From: a virus
IMG/VR virus record: IMGVR_UViG_3300036466_000503
Span: 2,705 to 66,704 of that record
Length of the DNA: 64,000 nucleotides
Strand: one strand, 5' to 3'
Of the stretch, positions 44,884-62,069 are shown piece after piece. The translations under genes were made by a program, and so were the position numbers. The notes under the pieces are model-generated. The model was not told where the DNA came from and searched no databases. It saw only the letters and a program-made list of their open reading frames with translations. Position 1 is the first letter of the stretch; every line of letters starts with the position of its first letter.

Positions 44884-44885
44884 TT

Positions 44886-46285: not shown

Positions 46286-46357
46286 CACTTTCTTTTATTT
46301 TTTTAAAAGTGTAAACATAAATGTTTATAATTACTGATAGAATAGACCTTAAAGCGT

Positions 46358-46684
46358 TTACATTTTAAGAATATAGTGCTGATAAGCATACTGTCCATCT
46401 TCTGTTATTTCTATGATAGTTTTTCTACCCTCTGACCTTGATTTTAGAAACAATATATTCTCCAACTTCCACAATGTTTTGGTTAGTTGGTGATAGGTTG
46501 TATTCTCCCTAAATTGCCTGTCTAATTGATTTGCTACTTCCTGTCTATTAAGAGTACCTAATTCCCCAAATATCCTCAAAACAGCCCTTTCTCGCTTATT
46601 TAAAGTGGCAATAAAAACTTCTATACATTGTCTTTCTAATTGCATAAAAAAACCCCCTTCAATACGATATAAATATAATATCAT
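46358..46684 (-). CDS. Winged-helix DNA-binding protein (likely start ATG 46645)
   Basis: LNRQEVANQL...LWKLE...GRKTIIEITEDG pattern. Confidence 0.7.
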   Translation of the reverse strand: MILYLYRIEGGFFMQLERQCIEVFIATLNKRERAVLRIFGELGTLNRQEVANQLDRQFRENTTYHQLTKTLWKLENILFLKSRSEGRKTIIEITEDGQYAYQHYILKM

Positions 46685-46720
46685 ACTAAAGAGGGAATTT
46701 CAAATATTGTATTAAATTTA

Positions 46721-46945
46721 TTATACTGCATCTATATATTTTCGTTTACTTTTAGGTAAAAACAAAGGGGAAAGAAAACTGCCGTGCATATATATAGTTG
46801 CTTCAAATAGAAAATGTATGTGATCAGCGAAACTTGGGGAAGAAACAAGAAAAACGGTAAAGTAAGAGTTGATTGCTTTTAAAGTGTGTCCCATAAATCC
46901 CAACAAGTATATCGCTGTTATTATTTTATAAGTTAGTTCTAACAT
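46721..46945 (-). CDS. 74-aa membrane protein, paralog A
   Basis: YLLG..GH.LKA...SSP...SF.S.LF.PK.KRKYI shared with the next gene. Confidence 0.75.
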   Translation of the reverse strand: MLELTYKIITAIYLLGFMGHTLKAINSYFTVFLVSSPSFADHIHFLFEATIYMHGSFLSPLFLPKSKRKYIDAV

Positions 46946-46976
46946 TTTTTCTACTCTCCTTTGTTAGTAGTTTAAA

Positions 46977-47201
46977 TTAAATTTTAATATACTTTCTTTT
47001 CTCTTTTGGAAAGAATAATAAAGAGAAGAAACTCAATAATGAATATATAATACTTTCTATATAAAAGGAGAAGATATCAACAATAGTTGGAGAAGAAGGT
47101 AAAAACTCTGTCCAAAATACATGTAAAGCTTTCAGTAAGTGTCCTAATACGCCCAAGAGATATATATTCTTTACAATTAAGATAATAATTTCTTCATTCA
47201 T
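46977..47201 (-). CDS. 74-aa membrane protein, paralog B
   Basis: Shared motif as above. Own TTGACA-N17-TATTAT promoter around 47234-47262. Confidence 0.75.
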   Translation of the reverse strand: MNEEIIILIVKNIYLLGVLGHLLKALHVFWTEFLPSSPTIVDIFSFYIESIIYSLLSFFSLLFFPKEKRKYIKI

Positions 47202-47271
47202 TTTTTAATCACTCCTCTTTATTAGTATATGAATATAATACCATAATTTAAATTAGCTGTCAAGCATTATT

Positions 47272-47772
47272 TTAAATTTCTTTAAAATCACTAAATAATA
47301 CCCTCAAATCCCAACCCTTACCCAACCTTTTCAACTCTGTTGTTTCTTCAATAAAATATTCTAAAGGAATACTTTTAGCATTTCTTGGATACTTATCTAA
47401 AAAATATTCGTTATTAACCATTGCATACCTTAAATATAAAAACTCTTCTATTGTTAAAGCAAAAGTCCTGCCTTTATGACTATTAATCCACCTGAAATTT
47501 ATCAATATATACGATTTATGATTCCAATGTTTATTAAATTCAATTAATCCCCTTATTTGTTCTTCAGATAATCTTTCAAAGGGGAAAGATTTACTTTCTG
47601 CTTTATCATTTATTATCTTTGCTTCAATAGCAATACTTTTTCCGTTTGCTGCAATAATTTCATCAAAAGGGCTTGAGCTTCCCCTGTACATTTGAACATC
47701 TCTTAACCTTCTATGCCAAAGTCCTATTATTTCTGCCGAATCTTTAATATCATTTTGAAGTAAGTTTGCCAA
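47272..47772 (-). CDS. recU: RecU-like Holliday junction resolvase
   Basis: SPFD...IAIEAK...SFPFERLSEEQI..L...SYILINF. Confidence 0.8.
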   Translation of the reverse strand: MANLLQNDIKDSAEIIGLWHRRLRDVQMYRGSSSPFDEIIAANGKSIAIEAKIINDKAESKSFPFERLSEEQIRGLIEFNKHWNHKSYILINFRWINSHKGRTFALTIEEFLYLRYAMVNNEYFLDKYPRNAKSIPLEYFIEETTELKRLGKGWDLRVLFSDFKEI

Positions 47773-47784
47773 ATGAACACCACC

Positions 47785-47985
47785 TTATATCCCAAATAAG
47801 CTATTAAAAGGAATTTTAATATCACTTTCTCCTTTTTGTTCAACCAATACATAAACCCCATTGTATCCTTCATTATCAATTCTTCTCATAATTATATCAG
47901 TATTACTAATATCAACCTTTGTGTTATCTGAAAACATAACAGAAACAGTTTGTTTTTTTAAATTTAATTCTTTCAAGTTAAACAC
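47785..47985 (-). CDS. Hypothetical protein
   Basis: ORF in operon. Confidence 0.55.
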   Translation of the reverse strand: MFNLKELNLKKQTVSVMFSDNTKVDISNTDIIMRRIDNEGYNGVYVLVEQKGESDIKIPFNSLFGI

Positions 47986-47989
47986 CCCT

Positions 47990-48451
47990 TTATAAAGTAC
48001 TTAAAATTAATAAACTAAAACTTAAAGCAAGAAATAATAATTTTACATATCTTAAATCAGAGTACATTTTATTTACAATTTTCATATTTATTTCTTCTAT
48101 TTCAGCATAATGATTAATCATTTTTTCATTTGCATTTAATTTGCTATCAAATTCATTAATAATTTTTTCAATAGTTTTTATCTTTTCCTGATAAGCCCAA
48201 TTAAAACCCTTAAATAATTTAAATAAATAATAAAAAATAAAGACTATAACTGTTAATGCAGTCATGCTAAAGAAAATAACTATACTATTTGAATTATTTA
48301 AATCTATTAGATATTCAATTTTAGTAATTAATATGATTAAAATAAAGAAATAAAATGTTGAAATTGCTTTAATAAAATAATAATCTTTATTAAGTCTTTC
48401 AATAAACTTTAAATACATATCTAATCTATCTTTTTCTTTCAAAGTAAACAC
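47990..48451 (-). CDS. Three-TM membrane protein
   Basis: Hydrophobic segments. Confidence 0.6.
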   Translation of the reverse strand: MFTLKEKDRLDMYLKFIERLNKDYYFIKAISTFYFFILIILITKIEYLIDLNNSNSIVIFFSMTALTVIVFIFYYLFKLFKGFNWAYQEKIKTIEKIINEFDSKLNANEKMINHYAEIEEINMKIVNKMYSDLRYVKLLFLALSFSLLILSTL

Positions 48452-48455
48452 CCCT

Positions 48456-48644
48456 TTATAAAATTATTGTACAAATTATTTCAGCTTTTCCATTTTCCCA
48501 AGTAAAAAGTTGGAGGAATTGATTATATGGAGTTACCTGAATAATTCTTTCTTCTAACCAACCCTCCTGATATCCACCCAAATGTTCAGGGTGGTGTTTT
48601 TGGAGATACTTCTCAATAAAATTAAGCTCTTTGTAATAAACCAT
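48456..48644 (-). CDS. Hypothetical protein
   Basis: Translationally coupled ORF. Confidence 0.6.
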   Translation of the reverse strand: MVYYKELNFIEKYLQKHHPEHLGGYQEGWLEERIIQVTPYNQFLQLFTWENGKAEIICTIIL

Positions 48645-48949
48645 TATTCATTCTCCTTTCTCAACTTCAAATAATCATTAATAGACTTTCTTAAAGTTCT
48701 TACTATATGAAGGACAATGTTTTCATTGTAAAAAATACCAACTGACATAAGGTAAGCTCTTATATCTTTAATAGCTTGATAATCACGAAAAATAAAAACT
48801 TCTCCGTCTATAATGACTAAACAATCACCAATATTTGTGTCTTTAATTTCTCTTTTTTCTAAAATACTCAAACGACCATTTAGTTTATCTGTATAAATAA
48901 TATTTTCTTCCTTATCAACAACAATTTCATAGTCAATCTCTTTAATCAT
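48644..48949 (-). CDS. Hypothetical protein
   Basis: ORF with RBS. Confidence 0.6.
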   Translation of the reverse strand: MIKEIDYEIVVDKEENIIYTDKLNGRLSILEKREIKDTNIGDCLVIIDGEVFIFRDYQAIKDIRAYLMSVGIFYNENIVLHIVRTLRKSINDYLKLRKENE

Positions 48950-48964
48950 TTTTTTTCACCACCT

Positions 48965-49684
48965 TTAAATTCTCCTAATACTATTCCAAACTTCTTTTGA
49001 AGGGAAAAAATCAATAAATTCTTCCAACAGCTTATTGGTTCTAATTACATCATTAAAATTATGTCTATATACTTCTTCTACTTTCCCTGCCTTAACCAAC
49101 TTATTGGTATCTGCACCGTCTATATATTCTTCCTTCTTCATTGGATCAAAAAAGAATTGATATACACTCTGTAAATCATTTTTTTCTGTACTTTTTGTCT
49201 CCTGATAATCCAACCAATCAATATTTTTCTTTTCAAGTATTGCAGCAAGTGTTTTTTTCTTTGTATCATATTTGAGGTTGTTTGCTTTTGCTAATTTTTC
49301 TATATCCTCTTTTAATAATCTTGATTTAGGTGTTGGTTTAGTTATATCAACTGTTGTATTGAGATATTTTTTAATTAAAGGGTAGATATCAAGGTGATCC
49401 ATTTCTTTTAATAACCAAGGTTTTTTCTGCTTTAAAAAGGCTGTTCTTAAAAATGGAATATCAAAGCCTGAATAATAGTTTTCCCCGTTAAAGGTAACCA
49501 AAATTGCTTTATTATACATTTTATCTTTAATTTCTTTTACAATATCCTCAAAATCATTTAGATTTTTTGCTAACTTATAACTATCTCCCACCTTAAAAAC
49601 TGCTGAAACAAAATCTCCATTAACCGCTGATAGAGAAGTAGTTTCAATATCAAACGGGATAAAAAGTTTACCATTCCAATACAT
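48965..49684 (-). CDS. RNase H-like DEDD 3'-5' exonuclease (candidate proofreader for the phage DnaE)
   Basis: FDIETT, TFNG...FDIPFL, HLDIY and HNFNDV motifs. Confidence 0.8.
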   Translation of the reverse strand: MYWNGKLFIPFDIETTSLSAVNGDFVSAVFKVGDSYKLAKNLNDFEDIVKEIKDKMYNKAILVTFNGENYYSGFDIPFLRTAFLKQKKPWLLKEMDHLDIYPLIKKYLNTTVDITKPTPKSRLLKEDIEKLAKANNLKYDTKKKTLAAILEKKNIDWLDYQETKSTEKNDLQSVYQFFFDPMKKEEYIDGADTNKLVKAGKVEEVYRHNFNDVIRTNKLLEEFIDFFPSKEVWNSIRRI

Positions 49685-49780
49685 AAAATAATCACTCCTT
49701 ATAATTTTAAATGAAACAAGTTTTAAATCATTATTTTAAATAAACAAAAAAAAGAAACACTTTAATATCTTTCTATTATT

Positions 49781-49810
49781 ATTATACCTGTATCTTTGGT
49801 TTTAATTCAA
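49781..49810 (-). promoter_or_regulatory. TTGAAT-N18-TATAAT promoter, copy 5
   Basis: Motif match. Confidence 0.75.
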
Positions 49811-49849
49811 AAGATATATGAAAATAATATTAAAGTATTTCTTTAAAAA

Positions 49850-50845
49850 CTAATTAAGTTTATCTCTTTTTTCAAAAAACTTATCAAATATTTCTTTTTC
49901 TTTAATTTCTGCTATGTCTTTATACTTTTCTTTATCTTTATCGTCTTTTAAATAGAGTTTAATAACTTCAACATTAACTATTGGTAGAAGCTCTTTGATA
50001 GCCTTATTTCGCCCATTTACACCCTCTGTGTCATTATCAAAGGCAAGTATAACCGTACCTGATAACTGCCTTAACAACCACTTTCTCTGTCCTATATCGT
50101 TGTTTCCAAGTGCAACTGCCTTATATCCCCACTCTGCAAGTCTTAATACGGACTTTTCGTCTTCAACAACTATTACATAATCATTTTTTTTATTTATCAG
50201 CTTTTGAATACCAAAAAGAGTATCTGTTTTCTGACCACCTGATTTTGTTTTATATTTATTCTCCATTTTTTCTGTAATATCTCTGCCTGCAATAGCAATA
50301 ACCGTATTATCTTTATCATACCAAGGAAAAGTAACCCTGTTATATAATTCATCTTGCGGATCATAGCAGAAACCAATCTTAAATTCTTTCAATATTTCAA
50401 GACTAAAACCCTTATCAAGCATATATTGGTGCTGATTTTCTGCATATTTATTAACCATTGTTTGACTGACTACATTTTTTTCTTTATCTCTTTCAACCAA
50501 TGATAGCAGGCTGTTTTGTTTTTTCTTTTGAGTGCTTTTAAAATCAATCGTCTGACCTCTTAAATCTTTTCCTGCTATTAGCTTTAATGCTTCGTAAAAG
50601 TCAACTTTTTCAACTGCTTTTACAAAATCAATCAAATCACCACTTGCTCCACAACCAAAGCATTTATAAAGCTGTTTTTCTTCATTTACAAATAGGGAAG
50701 GTGTGCTGTCCTCGTGAAAAGGACATACACCTTTATATTCATTTGAACTCTGCTGTTCAAGGTTTGTATAGACACCAACAACCCCAATCATTGAAGTGTT
50801 ATCTTTAATCTCCTGTATATTTACCATATTACTCAACCCTGTCAT
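49850..50845 (-). CDS. dnaG: DNA primase (CHC2 Zn finger plus TOPRIM)
   Basis: CPFHEDSTPS, CFGCG, RVTFP, AGR and AFDND motifs. Confidence 0.93.
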   Translation of the reverse strand: MTGLSNMVNIQEIKDNTSMIGVVGVYTNLEQQSSNEYKGVCPFHEDSTPSLFVNEEKQLYKCFGCGASGDLIDFVKAVEKVDFYEALKLIAGKDLRGQTIDFKSTQKKKQNSLLSLVERDKEKNVVSQTMVNKYAENQHQYMLDKGFSLEILKEFKIGFCYDPQDELYNRVTFPWYDKDNTVIAIAGRDITEKMENKYKTKSGGQKTDTLFGIQKLINKKNDYVIVVEDEKSVLRLAEWGYKAVALGNNDIGQRKWLLRQLSGTVILAFDNDTEGVNGRNKAIKELLPIVNVEVIKLYLKDDKDKEKYKDIAEIKEKEIFDKFFEKRDKLN

Positions 50846-51209
50846 TAACTTCTACATTAGTGCCAACATAAACCCTTCCATATGCTTTAATTATTGTTTT
50901 ATTTCCTGTTCTTAATACTACTGTTTCGTCTTTCATTTGATATACTTCTTTAATTAACATATCAATAAGTTCATCTGCTATTTCAACCCCTCTGACTTTT
51001 TTAAAGTTTTCGGGATAATCACTAACCTTAACTACATTTTTTGCTAAAAACTCAAACTCTCCATCTAAAGTTTGTACTTCTATACTTTCCCCAATATCAA
51101 CAACCCTCAATGGTCTCCCAAGAAGACTATTATCTTTTGGAAAATCAATATCCTCTAACTTTTCCACAACCACAATATCGTTCACATTAATATTTTTCAC
51201 ATTAACCAC
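50829..51209 (-). CDS. Hypothetical protein
   Basis: ORF between helicase and primase. Confidence 0.65.
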   Translation of the reverse strand: MVNVKNINVNDIVVVEKLEDIDFPKDNSLLGRPLRVVDIGESIEVQTLDGEFEFLAKNVVKVSDYPENFKKVRGVEIADELIDMLIKEVYQMKDETVVLRTGNKTIIKAYGRVYVGTNVEVNDRVE

Positions 51210-51215
51210 TCCTTT

Positions 51216-52610
51216 TTATTTGTTAACTTCCTGAAAAAGTAATCTATTTTCGTCAAGTCTAAGCTCCACACATTCTCCATTAGCCTCAAAGTTATGCTTT
51301 TTTCCACTTCGTGTTTTCTTTGCAATGAGTGCAAAGTCTCCACTAAAAAGAAACTTTTCTCTTTCTTCTTTTGTTATTGTTTTTAATATTAAAAAGTTGG
51401 AAGCATATCTTTCTATATCCTGACTTTCAGCAGCAAGCATACTATCATAGGTTTTTGCCTGACTTGCAGTTATTACAAATATATCTAATGGAATTGCTAT
51501 TTTTTCCTTCATTACATTAACTACATTCCCCAACCAATGTCTTGTTACCATTTCGTCTTTACCCCGATAAGCACTACTAACTTTCACATAATCCCACACA
51601 AAACCAACTATACCGTATTTTTTCTTAAAATATCTTGCTCTTCTCAATAGTTTTTCAGGTGTATAATCATCCATTTGGTCAAGATAGATAGGGCTTTTTT
51701 GAAGTTCTGCTATTGCTCTGCTTATTTTTTGCTTTAATTTTTCGTTACCTGGCTTATTATATAGTCCGTTTTCAATATATATCATTGGAATGCCTGTCAT
51801 TTCAGAAAGAAGTCTTTCTCTTTGTTCTTTTAGCGTCATTTCATTAGCACCCCAATAGATAGGTTGTTTTAGGTCAACTCCAATTTTTTTAACAATACTT
51901 TTTAGTATTAGTGATTTTCCAACATTAGTTTGAGCGTTAATTACTGTTACAGCACCCTTTCTTAAAATACCTCTTGTATATTTGTCGATTGAAGGGAATG
52001 GACTTTCAAAGCCTTTAAATGACTTCTCTACAACTTCCCTGTTCATAAACTCTTCCATCATACCCTCTGCTATATGTTCTGCTTTATCGGTGGTATCTGT
52101 GAAGGTATCAGTTATTTCTAATACTTCTTCTTCAACTTTTTGGAGTACATCTTCAAGTTCAAGTGTTTTATAATTATTTTCAAGATCTATATTAATTTTT
52201 TCATTTCTTAATACTATTTCATTAACCGCTGAAATTTTCTTTAATTCTGTGATATACATATCTATACTTTTTGAATCCACATCAAATTTATGAAGTGCTC
52301 TTACATATTTTGAAACTGACTGCTCTGCATTATCTTTAGCGGACCCAAGTTCTTTTGCAAAAACTTCTCTTACATTATGAAATTTATCAATATAATTAAT
52401 AATTGTTACTTCGTCAAACTTTGAATTTTCCATATCTTTTTTTCTCGATATATAGTCAAGAATTTCAAAAAGAGATCTGTTGTACTCAACCCCTGTATAT
52501 TTATCAAAATCTTCAGCAGTTAGCCCTGTTTCATATATCAGGGAAGGGTTTTGAATTATAGAAGCCAAAATACTCTGTTCAATTATCTTGCTATTTATCA
52601 TTTTTTCCAT
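51216..52610 (-). CDS. dnaB: Replicative DnaB-like helicase
   Basis: EQSILA N-terminus, AQTNVGKS, NEM, WDYV, TASQ and KKTRSG motifs. Confidence 0.9.
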   Translation of the reverse strand: MEKMINSKIIEQSILASIIQNPSLIYETGLTAEDFDKYTGVEYNRSLFEILDYISRKKDMENSKFDEVTIINYIDKFHNVREVFAKELGSAKDNAEQSVSKYVRALHKFDVDSKSIDMYITELKKISAVNEIVLRNEKINIDLENNYKTLELEDVLQKVEEEVLEITDTFTDTTDKAEHIAEGMMEEFMNREVVEKSFKGFESPFPSIDKYTRGILRKGAVTVINAQTNVGKSLILKSIVKKIGVDLKQPIYWGANEMTLKEQRERLLSEMTGIPMIYIENGLYNKPGNEKLKQKISRAIAELQKSPIYLDQMDDYTPEKLLRRARYFKKKYGIVGFVWDYVKVSSAYRGKDEMVTRHWLGNVVNVMKEKIAIPLDIFVITASQAKTYDSMLAAESQDIERYASNFLILKTITKEEREKFLFSGDFALIAKKTRSGKKHNFEANGECVELRLDENRLLFQEVNK

Positions 52611-52701
52611 AGATATACCTCCTATTTATTGAAAAAAAACCAATTTAAAAAAGAAAAAGGGGATAGGTTTTGTATTTATCCCCTTATTTTACTGCCTAAA
52701 A

Positions 52702-53700
52702 CTAATCAGATTGAGCTGTATCGTCTTCTTTAGTATTAATCATACTTTGATACTGTTTAGAGCTTAAAACCTCTAAATACTTCTTTTGCTCGCCTATATT
52801 AAGTTCTGCAATGCTTTCTTTTTTAAATAACTGCTGTAAAATAGCTTTATTATCTTCAGGACTTACTTTTTCAGTCTTTAGTATTTTAATCAGAGATTTT
52901 TTTACTTCTTTTTCTTCCTGCTTTTGATAATAATTTTTAATCATTTCTTCAGTTACACCCTGCTTTTTATTATTCTTTTCAATAGCAGAATTAAAAGCTT
53001 CTTTTAATTCGTCAAAATCAAGGTTGATTGTGTCAACTCCAAAATCTAACCTGCCACCTGCCTCTTGATTAGTGGTTGGTCTTACAAATAACTTTCTGTT
53101 GCCTTCATTATCAAAATCAGCCAATAAGAAAATATCAGCAATATTTTTGATAAAATCTCCACTACTTCCTCCAATATCAAGATCTATAATATCCTTTTCT
53201 CCACCTATACCGTTTTTCTCATTCTTAACTTTGATATGAGCAATTATCACAACACCAAAATTATTTGAGAGGAGTTTTCTTGTTACATTAGCAAATTCAG
53301 TCTTTACATAACCCCAACCTTCCCCATAATCAAGCTGTGAAGGGTGTGTTATTCCGTGCTTTTTACATACATAATCCTGACATTGGTCATAAGCTACACC
53401 GTATGGATCAACTATTACAGTCTGAAAACCATAACCTTTATTCTGAATAAATTCGTCAATTAGCTTCTTAAAAATCAACCAAGGGTGTGCATTTAATTCG
53501 TTGGCTTTTTCTATAATATCTGTTTCATGAGTTAATAACCCTGAAGTTGACGGTTCAAATTTAAAGTGATAAGGTTTTGGATACTTATTAGCAAGTGTTG
53601 TTTTACCAATCTTATTTCGCCCTGTAAGAACCCAAATAAACTCATTCATTTTTTGCTTTGGAATTGAGACTTCCAAATTTACTAAACTCAAATAAACCAC
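52702..53700 (-). CDS. Sak4-like AAA_24 ATPase / single-strand annealing protein
   Basis: GRNKIGKTT, TVIVD, YGEGW and IIAH motifs. Adjacent to SSB. Confidence 0.8.
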   Translation of the reverse strand: MVYLSLVNLEVSIPKQKMNEFIWVLTGRNKIGKTTLANKYPKPYHFKFEPSTSGLLTHETDIIEKANELNAHPWLIFKKLIDEFIQNKGYGFQTVIVDPYGVAYDQCQDYVCKKHGITHPSQLDYGEGWGYVKTEFANVTRKLLSNNFGVVIIAHIKVKNEKNGIGGEKDIIDLDIGGSSGDFIKNIADIFLLADFDNEGNRKLFVRPTTNQEAGGRLDFGVDTINLDFDELKEAFNSAIEKNNKKQGVTEEMIKNYYQKQEEKEVKKSLIKILKTEKVSPEDNKAILQQLFKKESIAELNIGEQKKYLEVLSSKQYQSMINTKEDDTAQSD

Positions 53701-53811
53701 TCCTTATTTTTTATATTAAATCCCCTAAATCAACCAAGACTTAGGGGATATTTAAAACTTTACAATAATATTATTAAAGTCATTTAATGTATTATTTTAA
53801 ATATGAATAAA

Positions 53812-54774
53812 TTAATAAATATCAGCAAAATCACTTGCGTCAAATTCGTCTTCTTCTGTATCGTCTAAAGTAATACCTTCATTTAAGTCAATGCCTTCAA
53901 GGTCTTCGTCTTCAATTGGTTTATATTTAGCATTTACTTTACCTACATATTTAATTTCAACTTCATTTAGGTTGCCCTGTACAATATCATATTCGTTTAC
54001 AATCTTTCTTGTGTTAATACTGCAACCAAGAACTATATTGTCATACAGGTTAACTTTTTCGTCAATTTCTTCTGCCTTATCTCCATAAGCCACAATGTGA
54101 AGGAAGGTGATCTTATACAGCTTATTTTTAATACCTTGAATTTTTTCAGCAAGTGAATAGAGCTGCTTTAGATTTTCTGCGTCTGTATTTTCTACTTCTT
54201 TTTTAAGTAGTAAAACCTTTTGGCTTACATCATTACTTTTATATTTAATGTATCCTTCAATTTCCTGAATAAGAGCCTGTTTAATATCAAGATCCTTTTT
54301 TCTTGTTTCAGAATTAAATCTGTTTAAAATCGCAACTACAACTTCTGCTTTAGTCTGCTTTTGATTAACTTTTTCTCCTCTGACTGTATCTGTCAGGCTA
54401 ATGTTTTTTTCTACAATATCGCAATTAAAATTAGTAATTGCTTTTTCTTCAGAAAGCTCTGATACTTTTTCAAGGTTATACACTTTATCTTTACCGATAA
54501 TTTTATTGTTTACCTGGCGGCTGTATTCTCCATTATATAAATTTTCTTCAAGTTCTCCTTTAATCTCGTACTTATCACCCTCTACAATACCATTAAGTGT
54601 TTTCTTTACAATTCCACTTGGCTTTTCCCACATCATAGCTGTTACAAGGTTTCCATTAGCGTCTAATTTAATTTTTCCAAATGGAGTTCTTAATCCTTCA
54701 GTTCTGTACTCCACAGAAACCACAGTACCAATAACCCTTGCGTTGTTCTCAAATTTACCTCTCACAAAAATCAC
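53812..54774 (-). CDS. Single-stranded DNA-binding protein (two OB folds, acidic tail)
   Basis: N..RVIG.V, IKGELEENLY, very acidic C-terminus ending FADIY. Confidence 0.7.
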   Translation of the reverse strand: MIFVRGKFENNARVIGTVVSVEYRTEGLRTPFGKIKLDANGNLVTAMMWEKPSGIVKKTLNGIVEGDKYEIKGELEENLYNGEYSRQVNNKIIGKDKVYNLEKVSELSEEKAITNFNCDIVEKNISLTDTVRGEKVNQKQTKAEVVVAILNRFNSETRKKDLDIKQALIQEIEGYIKYKSNDVSQKVLLLKKEVENTDAENLKQLYSLAEKIQGIKNKLYKITFLHIVAYGDKAEEIDEKVNLYDNIVLGCSINTRKIVNEYDIVQGNLNEVEIKYVGKVNAKYKPIEDEDLEGIDLNEGITLDDTEEDEFDASDFADIY

Positions 54775-54827
54775 TCCTTAAAAGTTTTTTTGAGGGGGTT
54801 CAAATTGCGATACCCCCTTATTTAATT

Positions 54828-54962
54828 TTATCTTAAAATCTCAATCGCCTTTACCAACTTATCAGATTGTTCATCTGTTAGGTCAGCTCCAAATGTATTT
54901 AAAATACCAAGAAGATTTTCTCTTCCAAGCTCTAATGGAATATTATCTCTGTTAGTTCTCAC
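54828..54962 (-). CDS. 44-aa hypothetical protein (not in ORF track)
   Basis: RBS AAAGGAGG, GTG start, MRTNRDNIPLELGRENLL...ILR. Confidence 0.65.
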   Translation of the reverse strand: MRTNRDNIPLELGRENLLGILNTFGADLTDEQSDKLVKAIEILR

Positions 54963-55018
54963 TCTTCAACCTCCTTTGTAAAATTTCCATAATTGGTAAT
55001 TTTTTCTTATCTGATGTT

Positions 55019-55166
55019 ATTATACCCTATCTCTTATTTTTATTCAAGCAATTTTAAAAAAATATTTAAAACTTTTTTTTAAAACTTCTATTTTGTTAGC
55101 TTTTCCAAAAATGCAATTTTTTTCCTTTTCTAATTCTATTATACCCTATGTATTTTTTTAATTCAA
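55019..55166 (-). promoter_or_regulatory. Tandem TTGAAT-N17-TATAAT promoters, copies 6 and 7
   Basis: 55019-55047 and 55138-55166, both with ATAGGGTATAATA. Confidence 0.75.
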
Positions 55167-55198
55167 AAAGAAATTACAAATTATTTATTAAATTTTTT

Positions 55199-56278
55199 CT
55201 AATAGGAAGAATTTCTCCTATTAAACCTCTTATGGTCGTTGATATGTCGGACTATTTCGCCCTTTTTAGTTAGTCCGTTTGAAAATACATCTTCCAATAC
55301 TGTAAAGAAATAACCGATATTAGCATTTCTCATAGCTGTAATTTCTAAGAGGTAAAACATTACTCTATTATCCAATGTACGCTCAAAAATAAGCTCTAAC
55401 TGCTTCAATGAAGGATATTTGGAGAAGGTTTTGTAAAAATCGACCACAAATTGGTAATTGACTTCTGTCTGATACTCTTCAGGCAAGTTATCCACAAGCC
55501 TTTTTGATTTTTCGAAAAATGAGAGCCTTTCTTCTCCTTCTTCTTTAAGTTCTTGTTTAAGATCTTTAGGGCTATTCTTTGTGGGGTACAACTGTCGTGG
55601 GGACAGAGGTTCCCCACGGTCATTTTTTTTAGTTGCAAAATGTTCCCTACGGTCAGCTTCCTGATTTGACGGGGACTTCTCCTCCTCTGCAAAATGTTCC
55701 CCACGGTGTGCAAAATGTTCCCCACGGTCGCCGTTATCTGCAAAATGTTCCCCACGGTCATTTTTATTTGAGTTTTTTTTGCTTGCCTGTGGATAACTTT
55801 CTTCTTTACCCTGATTTTCTTTATCTTGACCAACAAAAGGAAAGAGGGAATATGTATTAGTTGCAAATCTACCTAATTTTTCATTTAATATTTTATCTCT
55901 CTTTTCCTTATTTTTATCTTTTCCATTATCATCTTTTTTAATTGGATATCTTTCATAGGCTAATTGTTCAGTCCAAACTTCCTGTCTTACATGAAGATAA
56001 CCTTCTTCTATCAATTCTCTTTTTGCCCTTTTAACTGTCTTCAGCGAAACCCCCGCTTCTTGTTTAATTCTTTCATTTGAAATAAAACATTTACCATCTC
56101 CGTCAATGTGTGAAGCAAGAGAAAGAAAAACAACTACTGTACTTGTCTTTAGTTCATTCATTTGAAGTCGTGGGAACATAGTATATAATTTTACAAAGGA
56201 AAGTTTAGAAAAATCTTTGTACATATTAAGCCTTCCTTCGTTCCCGAAGGTTATTGTAGCATCTCTAAATTTACTCAT
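55199..56278 (-). CDS. Replication initiator (N-terminal wHTH, C-terminal DnaD-like region)
   Basis: CFISNERIKQEAGVSLKTVKRAKRELIEEGY...TNTY. Contains internal iterons. Confidence 0.8.
   Translation of the reverse strand: MSKFRDATITFGNEGRLNMYKDFSKLSFVKLYTMFPRLQMNELKTSTVVVFLSLASHIDGDGKCFISNERIKQEAGVSLKTVKRAKRELIEEGYLHVRQEVWTEQLAYERYPIKKDDNGKDKNKEKRDKILNEKLGRFATNTYSLFPFVGQDKENQGKEESYPQASKKNSNKNDRGEHFADNGDRGEHFAHRGEHFAEEEKSPSNQEADRREHFATKKNDRGEPLSPRQLYPTKNSPKDLKQELKEEGEERLSFFEKSKRLVDNLPEEYQTEVNYQFVVDFYKTFSKYPSLKQLELIFERTLDNRVMFYLLEITAMRNANIGYFFTVLEDVFSNGLTKKGEIVRHINDHKRFNRRNSSY
55488..55796. other. Replication origin: five TGCAAAATGTTCCCCACGGT-type iterons bracketed by two perfect DnaA boxes
   Basis: Iterons at 55609 (partial), 55634, 55688, 55709 and 55739. 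TTATCCACA at 55488 and TGTGGATAA at 55788. Confidence 0.85.
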
Positions 56279-56341
56279 TTTTTCACTCCTTTTTTTTTAA
56301 TTTTGTCTTGAAACTTAAAAGAAAAAGTTATATAATAATAA

Positions 56342-56549
56342 ATGCCTAATCAAACTTCTATCAAAAGCTCATTTTTTCATTCCTTTTTCCGAAGGTTATT
56401 GTAGCAGTTTTTAGATAGTGGTTTTAAGGTAATATAATAATAAGAGAAAGTTTTTAGAGGGCTTTCTTAGTTTTACGATTACAATAATGTTTAGCTGGCA
56501 GAATTGTAATCTCTCTTTTGAGAGCAGTTTTTATACTGCTCTTTTTTTT
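56342..56549 (+). ncRNA. Putative antisense/counter-transcribed RNA regulating the initiator
   Basis: TTGAAA-N17-TATAAT at 56308-56336, three hairpins, terminator AGAGCAGT/ACTGCTCT+T, two 20-21-nt copies of the anti-rep initiation region. Confidence 0.65.
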
Positions 56550-56553
56550 ATTT

Positions 56554-56877
56554 TTATTCATCTTTTATTACAATCCAATCATCGTCTTTTAGCCCCTTTA
56601 TAACCCTCTTTGCTGTTCTTTCACTAATTCCTGCCTTCTCTGCAACAAAATCCAATGGTAACTCTTCCATACCACCTTCTCCTAAAGTTTGAGCGTAAAG
56701 CAGAAAAACTTTTATTCTTGATCCGTGTAAATGCCTAAGTGCTTTTTCTGAAAAATTCCTGTTAAATCTTATATATTCCTTTTCTACAACTGTTCCGTCT
56801 TCTTTTACTATTCTATCTACACCTGTTCCAAGTCCAAGCTCTTCAAAACTATGTTTTCTTCTATGATCTTCGCTCAT
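56554..56877 (-). CDS. HTH protein related to the initiator N-terminal domain
   Basis: KVFL...VAEKAGISERTAKRVIKGLKDDDWI. Confidence 0.75.
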   Translation of the reverse strand: MSEDHRRKHSFEELGLGTGVDRIVKEDGTVVEKEYIRFNRNFSEKALRHLHGSRIKVFLLYAQTLGEGGMEELPLDFVAEKAGISERTAKRVIKGLKDDDWIVIKDE

Positions 56878-56997
56878 TATTAAATCCCCCTTTTTTTGAT
56901 TATTTATTAAATATCATCATACCATAGTGTTTACATTTTTTCAAAAAATTATGTACATAAAAAAAAGGTACGGAATGAACCCGCACCTTCTAATTAA

Positions 56998-57603
56998 TTA
57001 AGCTACATTTTTTTCAATAATACCTTTAAGCTTTTTTCTTATTTTCTTTAATCTATAATCAATAGCCTGAAAGGATACACCCTCTATTTCTGCTATTTCT
57101 GTAATAGTTAACTCTTCCATATAGTACATATCTATCATACGGGCTTCCTGCTCATTTAAATGATAATATAGATAATCAATAGTGTTTTGGTCTATATAAC
57201 TTGCTTCAAGGTCATAATCGTCTTCAAAATCTAATGTCTGACCGTCTTCATACTCATAGTCAAGGCTGATAGAGTTATCCATTATTTCATCACTTTCAGA
57301 GTTATAAAAGTCCTTTACAGCACTATCTAATACATAATAAAGGAAAGTATTAAATGCTGCTTTTTCAGGTTTATATAACCTAATAGCCTTTTCTATTGTT
57401 TCAAGAAGAAGATACTGCATAAGATCTTCGTTGATATAACCATTATTTTTTGCAGAACTTTTAATTGTCCTGATATTATTATCAATTACTTTTTTAACCT
57501 CTTTTTTATCACCATTTTTTGCTTTTTCCCAATTAACCTCTTGACCATACTGTTCAGCAGAAACCTCATATTTACTTAGTTCAAATTTATTCAAATTAAC
57601 CAC
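56998..57603 (-). CDS. Sigma-70 family sigma factor
   Basis: AKNGD, EDLMQ, AIRLYKPEKAAFNTF, ISLD and EIAEIEGVSFQAI motifs. Confidence 0.88.
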   Translation of the reverse strand: MVNLNKFELSKYEVSAEQYGQEVNWEKAKNGDKKEVKKVIDNNIRTIKSSAKNNGYINEDLMQYLLLETIEKAIRLYKPEKAAFNTFLYYVLDSAVKDFYNSESDEIMDNSISLDYEYEDGQTLDFEDDYDLEASYIDQNTIDYLYYHLNEQEARMIDMYYMEELTITEIAEIEGVSFQAIDYRLKKIRKKLKGIIEKNVA

Positions 57604-57633
57604 TCCTTAGTTTTTTTTAGTTTTCACTTATAA

Positions 57634-57746
57634 CTATACTATTAATCGCTTTTCATATTATTTATATTTTAATTAATAGTATAGCAGAATGGTTTAATTA
57701 ACATTTAAAATAATGCTTGACAAGGTTTGTCATATAATATATAATT
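57634..57746. promoter_or_regulatory. Divergent switch region: 13-bp inverted repeat, TGACAAggtTTGTCA palindrome and TTGACA-N17-TATAAT promoter
   Basis: CTATACTATTAAT at 57634 / ATTAATAGTATAG at 57672. Palindrome at 57719-57733 overlaps the -35. Confidence 0.7.
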
Positions 57747-57797
57747 ATAAGTGAAATAACAGTCTTACTACAACCAAATCAGAAAGGATTTGATTAT

Positions 57798-58193
57798 ATG
57801 AAATCAGAAAATAAATTACAACTTTCAAAAGAAGAATTTGCAGAGAAAATAGGTCAAAATATGAGAAAGTATAGAGATGATAGAGGACTTACTCTTCGTG
57901 AAATGGGAGAAAGAACTGACTATACAGGTGGCTATATTGGCTTATTAGAAAAGGGAAATGCCGTTCCTAATACTTATGTCCTAATGCAGATATCAAAAGC
58001 CTTAAATGTGCCTGTAAGCAAGTTATTATCAGAAGATACTTCTCCAATACCTGAAAGTTTAAATGATCCTATCTTTCAGAAAGAAGAGAGTAAACCTTAT
58101 ATCCAACTAATCAAAGAAATAATGAGCAAAGGTATTGAGCCTGATAAAGTAAGAGAAATAATATCTTTTTATGAAAAAATGAAAAGTGAATAA
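57798..58193 (+). CDS. XRE-family repressor
   Basis: RGLTLREMGERTDYTGGYIGLLEKG..P...L..IS.AL.V HTH_3. Confidence 0.88.
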   Translation: MKSENKLQLSKEEFAEKIGQNMRKYRDDRGLTLREMGERTDYTGGYIGLLEKGNAVPNTYVLMQISKALNVPVSKLLSEDTSPIPESLNDPIFQKEESKPYIQLIKEIMSKGIEPDKVREIISFYEKMKSE

Positions 58194-58319
58194 TATTAAT
58201 AGTGAACCCGCTTATTCTTAATAAAAGTATAGATAAGCGGGTTATTGCTCGTCTATTTAAACCCTGCTGTTATATTATATCATAGATAGAAATTTTTTCC
58301 AACTGATTTAAAAAAATAT

Positions 58320-58649
58320 TTATAATACTATTGCATTATTAACTTCCATATCATAATCAAGAATTGTTACTATATTAATTTTATTATTTTCAAATGTAAA
58401 AAGAATGGTTCCAATTCCACTTTTGAGTGCATAAAACTTTTGTGATAAATATTTTGCGTATTGCAGGTCGTGAAATCTATTATGAAATACATAGTTAATT
58501 TCCTGAATTGCTACATTTCTATCATTCATTCTCTTTACAGCGTGTTTTGTGAAATATACATTATAGTGATTGATTTTTGTTTTATTCACGCTTTTTTGCA
58601 TTTTTTCAATATCAAAATCATTTGCGTTAATTGAGTTAATATTAATCAT
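58320..58649 (-). CDS. DUF4258/RelE-BrnT-like small nuclease-fold protein
   Basis: FTKHAVKRMNDRNV...INIVTI. Confidence 0.6.
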   Translation of the reverse strand: MININSINANDFDIEKMQKSVNKTKINHYNVYFTKHAVKRMNDRNVAIQEINYVFHNRFHDLQYAKYLSQKFYALKSGIGTILFTFENNKINIVTILDYDMEVNNAIVL

Positions 58650-58764
58650 TGTTTGACACTCCTTTCTTATTTTAAGTTTAATAAGGGGGGAGTGTTTTAT
58701 GTTTTGTTATGACTAAAATTTAACCATTTTTTTCTGTAAAACCCCCTGCTGCCTTCCTAATTAA

Positions 58765-59667
58765 TTAAAATGTTAATGAGTTAACCTGTTTCTTTTTACC
58801 TTCATTATCAAGGTGGATATATATTTGAGTTGTTGAAATATTTGAGTGCCCTAAAATTTCCTGAAGTGCTTTTATATCTTTTGTCTGTGAATAGAAGAGA
58901 TATCCGAATGTGTGTCTTAGGCTGTGTGCTCTTATCTTTTTTTCAATATCTGTCTTTTTTAAATATTTGTCAATGGTTCTGTTTATTGTCTTTTTACAAA
59001 TTCCTCTCCCGCTGCCACTAATAAATAGTTTTGGACTACCTTCTACTGTAAAATCGTTTTTAGCTCTTTCAGTTTCCATATATTCTAATATCTTTTCTTT
59101 TGCCTTCTTATTGAGTGGAACTGTTCTCTGCTTTTTACCTTTTCCGACAAATGTCAGAGAATCGTTTTCAAAGTCAAATTCTTTAATTTTAATATTAGTT
59201 ACTTCAGAAGCTCTTAATCCTGAAAAAATCATAAAATAAATAAGTGCTTGGTTTCTTTTGTGGTTTCTGCCTTGATCACTATCAACTACTTTCATATACC
59301 TGCGTAATTCCTTTTTATTTAAATAGATAGGTTTTGTGTTTTTTTCTTCCTTTGTTCCTTCAAGTTCAAGAGTTGGATTTTCTGAAATGTAATTTTTACG
59401 AGAAAGAAAGAAGAAGAACTTTTTTAGGGCATACATTTTTTTGTTTCTTGTCTTTGGCAGGTTTCCCTGATTGACGCTGTTAAGGTATTCTTCAATTGCT
59501 ATTCTGTCAATATCTCCATTGATAATGTCTTCATATATATAACCGTTGTAATCTATAAAGTTTTCAACTTCTCTTATATAATCTTCAGCAGTTGTTTCAG
59601 CGTTTCCTTTTTCTTCAAGCATATACCCTTCAAAACCACCAAGTAAACCTCTAATCTTTTTATCCAC
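58765..59667 (-). CDS. XerC/D-like tyrosine recombinase
   Basis: SAM-like N-domain, GLRASE, GKGKKQR, HSLRHTF, LGHSNISTTQIY. All catalytic residues present. Confidence 0.93.
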   Translation of the reverse strand: MDKKIRGLLGGFEGYMLEEKGNAETTAEDYIREVENFIDYNGYIYEDIINGDIDRIAIEEYLNSVNQGNLPKTRNKKMYALKKFFFFLSRKNYISENPTLELEGTKEEKNTKPIYLNKKELRRYMKVVDSDQGRNHKRNQALIYFMIFSGLRASEVTNIKIKEFDFENDSLTFVGKGKKQRTVPLNKKAKEKILEYMETERAKNDFTVEGSPKLFISGSGRGICKKTINRTIDKYLKKTDIEKKIRAHSLRHTFGYLFYSQTKDIKALQEILGHSNISTTQIYIHLDNEGKKKQVNSLTF

Positions 59668-59960
59668 TTTAAAAACCTCCTTATTTTTTTAAAACCTTTT
59701 CCTCAACCCCACAACTTAATTTTACTATATATTATATATTATGTCAAGAACTTTTTTTAAATTATTTTTAATATATTCTTATTATATTATACTTTGTTTA
59801 TTTTGTAAAGGGATTTTTAAAAGTTTTTTAAAAGTTTTTACATATTATATATTCTTTTAAAAACCCCTTCTTTATGGTATGTCTTAATTATACTATTTAT
59901 AATATTATTTGTCAAGAGAAATAAAGCATTATTTTAAATTTATTTAAAAGTTTTTTTAAA

Positions 59961-60488
59961 TTAGTATAAATCCAATACATTCTCAAACTTCTTAATCGTT
60001 TTTACTATTTCTTCGTGTTCACGGGTAAATAAATCATATGGTTTTATAATTCCAATCAATTCGTCTTCTTTAATAATACTTATATTTTCCTGTATTTCGT
60101 CATAGTAAAAATCGCAACTATCAGCTAAAAACTCCAAGTAATCTGCATTAATACTTCCAATATTATTGTCTGCTACAAATATAGGAGAATTTTTATACTG
60201 CAAGTTAGTTATTTCTGCTTTTTTACCCCTATTATCAGGAAGTGGTATAGATTGTTCTATTTTAGAAAATCCTTCACCTTTATTAATGTATATATCGCCT
60301 TTTTCTATATTTGGAAGTTCACCGTTTCTTTTATAACCCTCCCATTTTTCTTTGAAATTTTTATAGTCATTTTCTCCTACAAAAAGTGCAACTATCAAAT
60401 CGCTTATAATATACTTTGTATCTGAAATCTTTTCTATGAGTATCTGATCGGAACCATTAAGAATTTGTGCTAATTTTTTACCATCCAC
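59961..60488 (-). CDS. Hypothetical protein
   Basis: RBS AAGGAG, GTG start. Confidence 0.7.
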   Translation of the reverse strand: MDGKKLAQILNGSDQILIEKISDTKYIISDLIVALFVGENDYKNFKEKWEGYKRNGELPNIEKGDIYINKGEGFSKIEQSIPLPDNRGKKAEITNLQYKNSPIFVADNNIGSINADYLEFLADSCDFYYDEIQENISIIKEDELIGIIKPYDLFTREHEEIVKTIKKFENVLDLY

Positions 60489-60529
60489 TTTTAACCAACT
60501 CCTTATTATTTTTTTAAAAAAGAATGAAT

Positions 60530-60553
60530 AGAGAAGAGAAGAGAAGAGAAGAG
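60530..60553. repeat. (AGAAG)n microsatellite
   Basis: About 4-5 tandem units. Confidence 0.8.
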
Positions 60554-60561
60554 TTTATAAA

Positions 60562-60912
60562 TTAAACCAACTGAAAATAGTTTTCTTTATACTCAACTCT
60601 CTCTAAAATATACTCTTCCTGAATAACCCCAAATACCTCGTTTTTTAGACCATTGCTGTTTTGTCTTAAAAAGTCATTTGCCTGCTCTTGAAAATTATCT
60701 ATTTCAGCCTGTGTATAATCCTTTTCTCCTTCAAACTCTATAATATCTTCCTGAAGATTGACCCTCCAAAAGAATAATATCTCTATTACAGCGTCTTTAA
60801 GTGTCATTTCTGCTATACTATCCCAAGTATCACTTATAGCTTCTTTGAAACCCTCTTCAGAATCAACCAATTTTTTAAAATCAAATCTCCAATGTTTAGT
60901 CAAAATAACCAC
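60562..60912 (-). CDS. Acidic hypothetical protein
   Basis: ORF, Glu/Asp-rich. Confidence 0.65.
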   Translation of the reverse strand: MVILTKHWRFDFKKLVDSEEGFKEAISDTWDSIAEMTLKDAVIEILFFWRVNLQEDIIEFEGEKDYTQAEIDNFQEQANDFLRQNSNGLKNEVFGVIQEEYILERVEYKENYFQLV

Positions 60913-60952
60913 CCTTTGTATTCGTATTTTTTGAAAAATGAAGCAACATAGC

Positions 60953-61170
60953 GACTCGTTTTTCCGCCCCTGGCTGTTCAGAAAAAATTTGTCTATTTTC
61001 CTGCAAAATATTTTTTCTAAAATTTCTAAACTAAAATTTAAAAATTTAAAAATTAATTTAGAGAAAATGACTCGTTTTTCAGCCCGTCGCCGTTCAGGAA
61101 AAATGCCTATATTTCCCCAAAACGACTCGTTTTTCAGGGTGCGGCTGTTCTGAAAAGAAGTGTCTATTTC
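60953..61170. repeat. Three GC-rich ~50-bp repeats GACTCGTTTTTC-N8-GCYGTTCWG
   Basis: Copies start at 60953, 61069 and 61124. Confidence 0.85.
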
Positions 61171-61332
61171 TGTACATAAATGACCTCAATTGTCATTTTG
61201 TTCATAAATGTCAAGAAATGACCAAAAAAGCCTAAAAAGTGGATATAAATTAATAAATTACAGTAAATGTCCGCAATTGTCAAAATCTATATCCACAACA
61301 TAAAAAAATAATTTTTAATACTTTATATTATT

Positions 61333-61362
61333 ATTATACCTGCTCATGGGGATTTAATTCAA
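61333..61362 (-). promoter_or_regulatory. TTGAAT-N18-TATAAT promoter, copy 8
   Basis: Motif match. Confidence 0.7.
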
Positions 61363-61486
61363 ATATAAAATTAAAAAAAATTAATTATTTTTAAATTTAT
61401 TTATTTAATTGTTAAATAATACAATTTAATAAAATAAAGGGGGATTACCCCCCTCATCTTATTTGTCTTATATTGTCCGTTTTTGT

Positions 61487-61732
61487 CTAATTTTCCAAAT
61501 TAAGGAAATTATTATCATTTTTTAAATCTTTAATCATTTTTATAAAATGGTCATCCGATTTTTTAAATAATAATTCAAATGGTAATTTAACGGCTTTAAT
61601 TGATAATGCTATTCCCGATGATATTGTTAATAATGATATTATTAATATTATTATTAATTCTAATGCACCGCCCATTAATGTTAATTTTTCAATAAATCCC
61701 ATTTCGATAATTGATTTAATTAAATTGATCAT
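61487..61732 (-). CDS. Membrane protein
   Basis: RBS AAGGAGG and a long hydrophobic segment. Confidence 0.7.
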   Translation of the reverse strand: MINLIKSIIEMGFIEKLTLMGGALELIIILIISLLTISSGIALSIKAVKLPFELLFKKSDDHFIKMIKDLKNDNNFLNLEN

Positions 61733-62069
61733 TTTTTTACCTCCTTATTTTTTTTACCTTTATGTCTAATATTTATATTATATACTAATTATACCATTAA
61801 ATAAAAATAATGTCAAATAATTTAATAAAAATAAATAAAATAATTTATAAAAAAACATACACAAATGTTGTCAAATGTGGTCAAAAATACACTTGTTAAA
61901 AAAAGAATTTAATTTAATTTATAAAATCATTAATAATTAATTTTAATTATTGAATTATCATTTATACTTTAAATTATCAGAAAATTTTTACTTTAATTAT
62001 TTATTTGACTTAATATGTAAAAAATGGTATAATTAACATATAATATAATAAAGGAAGGGGGATCAATAT

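Follow-up and report, generated by a model that had tools for sequence, protein, structure and literature searches.

A predicted counter-transcript carrying displaced copies of the initiator translation start in a putative phage-plasmid

We analysed a 64,000-nucleotide (nt) stretch of viral DNA, hereafter called the window, which corresponds to positions 2,705-66,704 of the 66,704 bases of IMG/VR virus record IMGVR_UViG_3300036466_000503. On its - strand the window carries a replication initiator gene, rep, preceded by the gene of a small helix-turn-helix (HTH) protein. In the gap between the two genes, and on the opposite strand, lies a predicted RNA unit that contains near-exact copies of the rep translation start region. 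We favour, with moderate confidence, the reading in which this RNA is a counter-transcript that represses translation of the initiator through these displaced copies, within a plasmid-like circuit of Cop protein and antisense RNA in a phage-plasmid.

RESULTS

The rep translation start region is duplicated in a rearranged form

The rep gene (55199-56278, - strand) encodes a protein of 359 amino acids (aa) with a Pfam HTH_36 match (1.1e-12), matches to PHROG replication-initiation families and an HTH_36/DnaD_N-like N-terminus. Its start codon is credible: two homologues align from residue 6 on and share a conserved D-x-T-x-x-F-G-x-E-G motif. Two sites on the rep messenger RNA (mRNA) are of concern here. 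Site A, AAAAAGGAGUGAAAAAAUGAGU (56273-56294, - strand), comprises the Shine-Dalgarno sequence, a 7-nt spacer and the AUG. Site B (56233-56271, - strand) covers codons 3-16 and includes the conserved motif as well as a CCUUCG-GGAA-CGAAGG hairpin.

In a repeat search of the window (families D3 and D4), block A (CTCATTTTTTCACTCCTTTTT, 56274-56294) was found to recur as A′ (CTCATTTTTTCATTCCTTTTT, 56368-56388) and block B (TTCCCGAAGGTTATTGTAGCA, 56241-56261) as B′ (TTTCCGAAGGTTATTGTAGCA, 56386-56406). Identity is 20/21 for both pairs, and the single difference in each is a C-to-T change on the + strand. Read on the - strand, block A is AAAAAGGAGTGAAAAAATGAG, that is the Shine-Dalgarno sequence, the 7-nt spacer and the ATG plus codon 2 of rep, and block B is TGCTACAATAACCTTCGGGAA, starting at the third base of codon 6 and ending at the second base of codon 13. 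The original order is B-12 nt-A; in the copy the blocks stand as A′B′, abutting with a 2-3 nt overlap.

When both strands of the window were searched allowing up to 3 mismatches, each block matched itself and its partner only (2/2 matches), with a chance expectation from dinucleotide shuffles of 0.13 for A and 0.01 for B. This confirmed that the repeats are real and far beyond chance. Because of this uniqueness A′, although it looks like a generic ribosome-binding site (RBS), matches the rep site and that of no other gene. Both repeats had been pointed out in a first-pass annotation of the stretch and were recovered where it had placed them.

That annotation described the copy as permuted, which is correct for the order of the two blocks and gives only part of the picture. 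Gapped alignment lengthens the B copy (56233-56271 versus 56380-56417, with a 2-nt deletion, a 1-nt insertion and four substitutions), and the copy is then seen to be largely collinear with rep codons 3-16, with A′ joined on at a shared TCCTT motif. On the + strand, block A′ (56367-56388) is thus complementary to the rep Shine-Dalgarno sequence, spacer, AUG and codon 2, and block B′ with its extensions (56380-56417; core 56386-56406) is complementary to codons 3-16.

The copies lie in a predicted + strand RNA unit

The copies are located in the 275-nt gap between the gene of the 107-aa HTH protein (56554-56877, - strand) and rep. Both genes are on the - strand, as are all flanking genes of the block. 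A sigma-70-type promoter is present on the + strand of this gap, TTGAAA-17-TATAAT (56308-56336; 11/12 consensus positions), from which transcription would start near 56343. In shuffled versions of the 275-nt intergenic region, a match of at least 11/12 arose by chance in 15/2000 cases. At the other end is an intrinsic terminator (56520-56549, + strand), with a stem at 56520-56543 (9 bp, 6-nt loop) followed by T8; the HTH gene has its stop codon 5 nt beyond the end of this terminator. From the promoter, the terminator and the fold we infer a non-coding RNA of about 205-207 nt (56343-56549, + strand).

This segment folds at -54.3 kcal/mol, compared to -36.7 +/- 3.5 kcal/mol for its shuffles (z -5.06; 0/200 shuffles as good). 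Four stem-loops are predicted, of which the first, at the 5′ end, is long and irregular (56343-56431). It is followed by hairpins at 56445-56467 and 56477-56511 and by that of the terminator. The same z of -5.06 is obtained for the 3′ 105 nt alone, and the complementary (-) strand of the wider region gives only -2.13. Terminator-like sites are frequent in the neighbourhood (4 in 55900-57100, with 0.4 +/- 0.6 expected). The one that closes the unit is terminator-like on the + strand only; on the - strand it has no T tail, the sequence after the hairpin being TCAAAAGAGAG. It should therefore not stop an HTH-rep transcript, and it was discarded as a terminator of the HTH gene. A promoter, three hairpins and an intrinsic terminator had been proposed for this region at first pass, and the predictions agree with this description, the terminator hairpin coming in addition to the three others.

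No credible open reading frame (ORF) was found in the unit, the small ORFs present being devoid of a Shine-Dalgarno sequence. A type I toxin-antitoxin pair was considered on account of two of them and rejected: the 38-aa + strand ORF (56487-56603) lacks a Shine-Dalgarno sequence and extends across the terminator, and the K-rich 35-aa - strand ORF (56454-56561) lacks one too. An Rfam cmscan of 55000-58000 with E up to 10 returned six weak, chance-level matches, none of them to a phage immunity RNA, and no Rfam family matched at gathering thresholds across the whole window. Among the sequencing runs, none of RNA is listed as carrying this sequence. A comparison with two DNA runs recovered the probable source contig and, in a second sample, tiny identical fragments, none of which spans the RNA unit.

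Two further promoter-like sites lie in the gap. A candidate proximal rep promoter, TTGATA-18-TATTAT (56335-56364, - strand; 10/12), stands back to back with the counter-transcript promoter, and the -10 hexamers of the two overlap; its score alone is not significant in such AT-rich DNA. A second, weaker promoter-like site on the + strand (56410-56438; 10/12) would give an RNA of about 105 nt without the targeting domain. The -10 region of the counter-transcript promoter (56324-56341) is itself repeated 102 nt downstream (56426-56443), with 16/18 identical positions (family D10), and this repeat supplies the -10 region of the second site. Two other candidates were set aside: B′ as an extended -10 rep promoter, whose 9/12 match plus TG is at chance level, and an attenuator upstream of rep, as no terminator-like site is found on the - strand between 56343 and 56294.

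The rep start is the best predicted partner of the RNA

The 89-nt 5′ domain of the predicted RNA was ranked by duplexfold against the -35 to +50 regions of the 75 ORFs of at least 90 aa. The rep start came first of the 75 at -49.1 kcal/mol. The next partner reached -39.3 kcal/mol, the others averaged -23.9 (standard deviation 5.2), and 500 shuffled RNAs gave a mean of -23.4 and a minimum of -37.8. The second-best partner is the start of a + strand gene (41217-42647) for a 476-aa protein with a DUF285 domain (7.5e-31), probably by chance.

The specificity of the complementarity is also apparent from helix lengths. Among uninterrupted G-U-tolerant helices with either strand of the window (its own complement excluded), the longest are those formed with the two rep sites, of 22 bp (2 G-U) and 21 bp (1 G-U); the runners-up have 20 bp with 5-7 G-U pairs. 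Duplex energies were -27.5 kcal/mol for A′:A, -32.7 kcal/mol for B′:B and -46.0 kcal/mol for extended B (36 pairs, two bulges). When the costs of unfolding were included, cofolding still yielded a gain of -21.4 kcal/mol, compared to -12.0 +/- 2.3 kcal/mol (minimum -19.8) in 100 controls with a shuffled 5′ domain. An interaction check of this kind had been suggested at first pass; in it, the rep start is the best target and the gain lies above the shuffled controls.

The 5′ stem-loop has a large internal loop that holds the centres of the two patches, CAUUUUUUCAUU (A′) and GUUAUUGUAG. In the free RNA these centres are predicted to be unpaired, with mean unpaired probabilities of 0.60 and 0.63, versus 0.41 for the whole RNA. 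In the folding model such exposed centres would suit nucleation, in the manner of the single-stranded 5′ tail of pMV158 RNAII (PMC4485353).

Substitutions between the copies preserve the predicted pairing with the rep mRNA

A single C-to-T change per block, compatible with a G-U pair, had been noted in the first-pass annotation. This holds, and it extends to the longer alignment, in which five substitutions are found (four C-to-T and one A-to-G, on the + strand): 5/5 keep a G-U pair with the rep mRNA and none creates a mismatch. By a hand count of the aligned columns, the chance that a substitution is G-U compatible is about 0.14 if rates are uniform and may reach about 0.4 if transitions are strongly AT-biased. 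The probability of 5/5 is then about 1e-4 to 1e-2 depending on the mutation model, a range that comes from our own arithmetic and is not the output of a tool. The substitution pattern points to RNA pairing.

On the - strand, the C-to-T change in A′ turns the Shine-Dalgarno copy from GGAG into GGAA, a weaker sequence. Behind this weakened copy, AAGGAA, there is a mini-ORF, ATG AGC TTT TGA (56372-56361, - strand), which would sit in the leader of a read-through transcript. The RBS copy and the minigene that had been reported for this strand as a decoy are present in the sequence.

A model for counter-transcript control of rep and what weighs against it

In the model that we favour, the intergenic region would encode an RNA of about 205 nt, transcribed opposite to both the HTH gene and rep. 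Its 5′ stem-loop would display two single-stranded patches, one for the rep Shine-Dalgarno sequence and AUG and the other for codons 3-16. Pairing of either patch in the cell, which we infer from the complementarity, would occlude the RBS or the first codons within the ribosome footprint, with less Rep protein as the result. Since the RNA gene lies beside the rep start and not over it, the two RNAs would owe their complementarity to direct repeats that are displaced and read in opposite directions. Owing to this displacement, rep mRNAs issued from the proximal promoter would remain sensitive to the RNA without any overlap with its gene. The same RNA would be perfectly antisense, in cis, to the leader of any HTH-rep read-through transcript and, via the duplicates, imperfectly antisense to the start region. 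Together with the HTH protein it would provide a dual control of initiator supply, by protein and by antisense RNA, that could hold the prophage at low copy or silent.

The bipartite antisense RNA put forward at first pass agrees with this model as far as the predicted unit, the rank of the rep start (1/75) and the two longest helices are concerned. Full pairing of both blocks at once is the part that appears strained: judging from the helix lengths, one RNA could not comfortably form both full helices on one mRNA, because the patches abut in the RNA but are separated by a 12-nt linker, and in the opposite order, in the mRNA. Two modes of pairing are plausible from the duplex models. In one, A′ would pair with the Shine-Dalgarno sequence and AUG; in the other, a near-continuous duplex of about 36 bp would cover codons 3-16, with UUCCUU of A′ pairing with GAAGGAA of codons 14-15. 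Either mode would fall inside the ribosome footprint, and two RNAs could bind per mRNA.

Besides this steric strain, several observations weigh against the model. Block A is a low-complexity sequence, a Shine-Dalgarno sequence plus a run of A. C-to-T is the favoured mutation in AT-rich genomes, which makes the G-U argument weaker. Non-specific A/U-rich pairing already accounts for about -12 kcal/mol in the cofolding controls, so that the specific gain is real but exceeds them by only about 9 kcal/mol. Promoter matches of 9-10/12 are at chance level (113 observed at 9/12 or better versus 98 +/- 10.5 expected), which leaves the proximal rep promoter and the second + strand promoter uncertain.

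Comparative support is also missing, the homologous locus not having been found in protein, DNA or pattern searches. A word search with Rep gave two relatives (41% and 38% identity), which leaves the lineage almost isolated in the databases. A search with a Rep alignment found three loci in metagenome contigs, one in viral contigs (on the same contig as locus L009) and none in genome contigs. Only L009 provides usable upstream DNA, since L008 ends about 100 nt upstream of rep and L010 matches the Rep C-terminus only. As single queries against viral contigs, neither the Rep nor the HTH protein gave a match. By tblastn, Rep matched nothing among plasmids and gave one 68-residue match at 34% among phages; blastn of 56200-56600 against phages returned AT-rich matches of 46-84 nt only, and neither the B core nor the stems of hairpin 3 had an exact match in the viral contigs scanned.

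The one usable relative, G001 (an 87.7-kb record with loci L009/L011), shares a ParM-like gene (54% identity), an Xer-like recombinase (45%) and the cI-like/sigma/rep gene order. In G001, rep follows the sigma gene after 64 nt, and this gap contains a sense promoter (10/12 plus TG). G001 lacks the HTH gene and the antisense unit, and nowhere in its record is its rep start duplicated. The module is thus dispensable for this type of replicon and lineage-specific, possibly young.

Alternative explanations

A lineage-specific and possibly young module leaves room for a neutral origin of the copies, and this is the alternative that survives best, although we consider it unlikely. A′B′ would then be what remains of a recent event at the rep 5′ end, a duplication or recombination mediated by microhomology, dating from the entry of a module of about 700 nt (terminator, promoter, HTH gene, hairpins) between the sigma-like gene and rep; the + strand RNA may or may not be made, and its similarity to the rep start would have no regulatory role. 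The order of genes in G001, without the module, indicates an insertion or deletion at exactly this junction. The copy, mostly collinear with codons 3-16 and joined to A′ at the shared TCCTT, looks like a recombination joint, the resemblance of the HTH protein to the Rep winged helix (see below) hints at local duplication, and selection is unsupported by conservation. The distribution of identity is however uneven, with 20/21 in both ribosome-binding blocks versus 6/9 with indels in the flank, which is not expected of a single recent event. Nor does this explanation account for 5/5 substitutions being G-U compatible in exactly the orientation needed, or for a copy that stands 25 nt downstream of a strong promoter with its cores in predicted loops.

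A rather improbable alternative is that the + strand RNA acts in cis only, on the perfectly complementary leader of the HTH-rep read-through transcript, either by RNase III-type processing or by destabilisation, or else through interference with transcription from the convergent promoter. The resemblance of the RNA to the rep start would then be incidental or secondary. Read-through is plausible, as no - strand terminator separates the HTH gene from rep, and complementarity to the leader is perfect over 207 nt. Classical plasmid counter-transcripts act on leaders in such a manner (PMC5717011). Left unexplained are the near-exact copies of the RBS region in this leader and the G-U pattern, and the candidate proximal rep promoter would produce transcripts that escape control in cis.

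The duplication can also be given a more elaborate role, to which we likewise assign a small probability, namely a decoy-gated switch for the phage-plasmid, in which target duplication would have made the long read-through transcript a built-in sponge for the counter-transcript. In a resting prophage, the constitutive counter-transcript would silence rep mRNAs from the proximal promoter through the imperfect, G-U-bearing A and B sites. Once the upstream operon fires, the long transcript would carry perfect-match patches together with the crippled Shine-Dalgarno sequence and the 3-codon mini-ORF. The perfect-match copy would outcompete the imperfect sites, soak up the RNA and collide with the RNA promoter, giving a burst of Rep translation from the decoy-carrying transcript. 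The threshold of such a switch would be set by the real sites being weakened by one step relative to the decoy (one G-U per block).

That A/A′ and B/B′ are DNA operators, bound by the 107-aa HTH protein or by Rep and flanking and regulating the back-to-back promoters, is highly improbable: the repeats do bracket the promoter pair (56308-56364), the HTH gene adjoins and Rep proteins often autoregulate, but the blocks do not resemble the Rep iterons (family D1), lie downstream of both transcription starts and not over the -35/-10 elements, are direct and permuted instead of symmetric, and as DNA sites would have no reason to show G-U-compatible changes.

Comparison with known systems

In small plasmids, antisense control of initiator translation is textbook knowledge; P1 and P4 provide known cases of immunity based on RNA. 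The plasmid counter-transcripts known to us reach their target by overlapping it. A literature search at title level retrieved no phage or phage-plasmid initiator under the control of a counter-transcript with displaced target copies, which is weak evidence that such a case is unpublished.

The c4 RNA of phages P1/P7 and the CI RNA of the satellite phage P4 serve in immunity, and each carries short patches that are complementary to a pair of target sites. The first-pass annotation had mentioned them as reminiscent of the present RNA, which it found not recognisably either; the latter judgement agrees with the Rfam scan, whereas plasmid circuits and par(pAD1) seem closer. Unlike c4 and CI, which are processed from the strand and transcript of their own targets, the RNA predicted here is encoded on the opposite strand with its own promoter, and it matches no Rfam family. 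P4 CI RNA silences the replication genes of its own element in lysogeny, from the same strand and by premature transcription termination (PMC4825925).

The pMV158 (CopG/RNAII/repB) and R1 (CopB/CopA/repA) systems both comprise a small repressor gene co-transcribed with rep and an antisense RNA that limits Rep synthesis, and in pMV158 RNAII inhibits rep translation through its single-stranded 5′ region (PMC5717011 and PMC4485353). The locus studied here resembles them in having the gene of a small DNA-binding protein, with putative repressor activity, immediately upstream of and co-oriented with rep, and in having between the two a predicted RNA on the opposite strand with its own promoter and a U-tailed terminator. 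It departs from them in three respects. In pMV158 and R1 the RNA overlaps its target, whereas here the RNA (56343-56549) and the start region (56233-56294) are separate and the latter would be reached by rearranged duplicates; the RNA is longer, by a factor of about 4, than pMV158 RNAII, which is of the 50-nt class; and the replicon is a 66.7-kb phage genome whose HTH protein shows no sign of being related to CopG or CopB.

In par(pAD1), according to PMC4147584, the direct repeats DRa and DRb are transcribed in opposite directions to give two complementary patches, and RNA II blocks ribosome binding and fst translation. In the same manner, the direct repeats A/A′ and B/B′ (each 20/21) form predicted helices of 22 and 21 bp over the Shine-Dalgarno sequence and AUG and over early codons. 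The par(pAD1) RNAs are convergent and share a terminator, unlike the present ones, which would be divergent or overlap only in the leader, with a terminator on the + strand only. The target also differs, a toxin peptide there and a 359-aa initiator here, with no toxin-like ORF.

Type I antitoxin RNAs of a further kind are known in E. coli. In IstR-1/tisB, OhsC/shoB, OrzO/zorO and AgrB/dinQ, the small RNA gene stands beside its target, divergent and non-overlapping, with limited complementarity derived from a local repeat (PMC4147584). Pairing in these systems is described there in long 5′ untranslated regions and not at the start, in contrast to the two patches considered here, which cover the start region and concern another class of target. 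By analogy, the closest counterparts would be found less in P1 c4 or P4 CI than in the Cop-protein/counter-transcript circuits of pMV158 and R1 and in the way par(pAD1) pairs through direct repeats.

If the favoured model is true, a replicon-control RNA would have gained its specificity by duplicating and rearranging the RBS region of its target, a route otherwise described for type I toxin-antitoxin pairs, and the locus would offer a testable case of a phage-plasmid, with ParM-like partition and an iteron-bearing Rep, throttling its own initiator. Resting on one uncultivated virus, the case will be of limited general importance as long as neither relatives nor transcripts have been found.

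The HTH gene and the organisation of the operon

The 107-aa HTH protein, encoded 275 nt upstream of rep and co-oriented with it, is a candidate Cop-like repressor. Its Pfam HTH matches are weak. Pairwise BLASTP aligned it with residues 28-100 of Rep, the winged helix, at E 2e-4 with 22% identity and no gaps; it may have arisen by local duplication, and it could equally be an inhibitor or regulator of the truncated-initiator type instead of a Cop-like repressor. The protein is otherwise an orphan. A word search of 5.8 billion proteins returned itself alone; HMMER against 1.84 billion representatives gave itself and two partial matches to non-homologous proteins of about 1900 aa; and a PDB sequence search gave artificial repeat proteins only (E about 0.004). 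A single-sequence structure model had a mean predicted local distance difference test score of 50.5, too poor for a fold search.

Upstream, a - strand terminator (56991-56963) ends the gene of a sigma-like protein (56998-57603, - strand). Just after it stands a candidate distal promoter of the HTH-rep operon, TTGAAA-17-TG-TATGAT (56916-56944, - strand; 10/12 with an extended -10). The layout on the - strand is thus sigma-like gene, terminator, distal promoter, HTH gene, counter-transcript unit (on the opposite strand) and rep. Within rep there are five direct iterons (55601-55768; family D1). Apart from these, an iteron-like sequence, GTCGTGGGAACATAG, is found in inverted orientation at 56167-56181 (+ strand; families D1 and D12), about 100 nt into the rep coding region, and may be an autoregulatory Rep site.

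Genomic context

The virus record carries direct terminal repeats. The G+C content of the window is about 24-34%, and no tRNA gene was found in its 64 kb. Genes up to about 44 kb are on the + strand and look structural; those at 44-61 kb are on the - strand and include, in addition to the ones described above, genes for a primase, a DnaB-like helicase, a Sak4-like ATPase and a 320-aa protein without family. Beyond the sigma-like gene, a cI-like HTH protein is encoded at 57798-58193 (+ strand).

Two further genes bear on lifestyle. A ParM/Alp7A-like actin-family ATPase is encoded at 45178-46206 (- strand; Pfam ALP_N 6.3e-18, MreB-like_C 7.2e-16; NCBIfam ParM 2.5e-16, below its cut-off), and an Xer-like tyrosine recombinase at 58765-59667 (XerD model 1.3e-56, below the equivalog cut-off). 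The combination of partition ATPase, iteron-bearing Rep and Xer-like recombinase suggests, from gene content, a prophage that is kept as a plasmid but may integrate. The copy-number control proposed at first pass gains in concreteness from the ParM-like and Xer-like genes. A search of genome contigs with the terminase, aimed at the host, gave no match.

Downstream of the ParM-like gene, a small ORF (44886-45185, - strand) could encode an adaptor of the ATPase, and a perfect 12/12 promoter (46285-46257, - strand) is associated with this gene. Three other 12/12 promoters are present, at 57717-57745, 59915-59887 and 61816-61788. Altogether, sigma-70-type promoters of at least 11/12 number 9 in 44000-62000, where 1.05 +/- 1.0 are expected (100 shuffles, maximum 4), an enrichment of about ninefold. 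The host evidently uses canonical -35/-10 promoters; the phage also has its own sigma-like protein. Finally, a 12-bp G+C-rich hairpin (52657-52685, + strand) occupies the gap between the DnaB-like and Sak4-like genes, both on the - strand, and is terminator-like on the + strand with a weak T tail.

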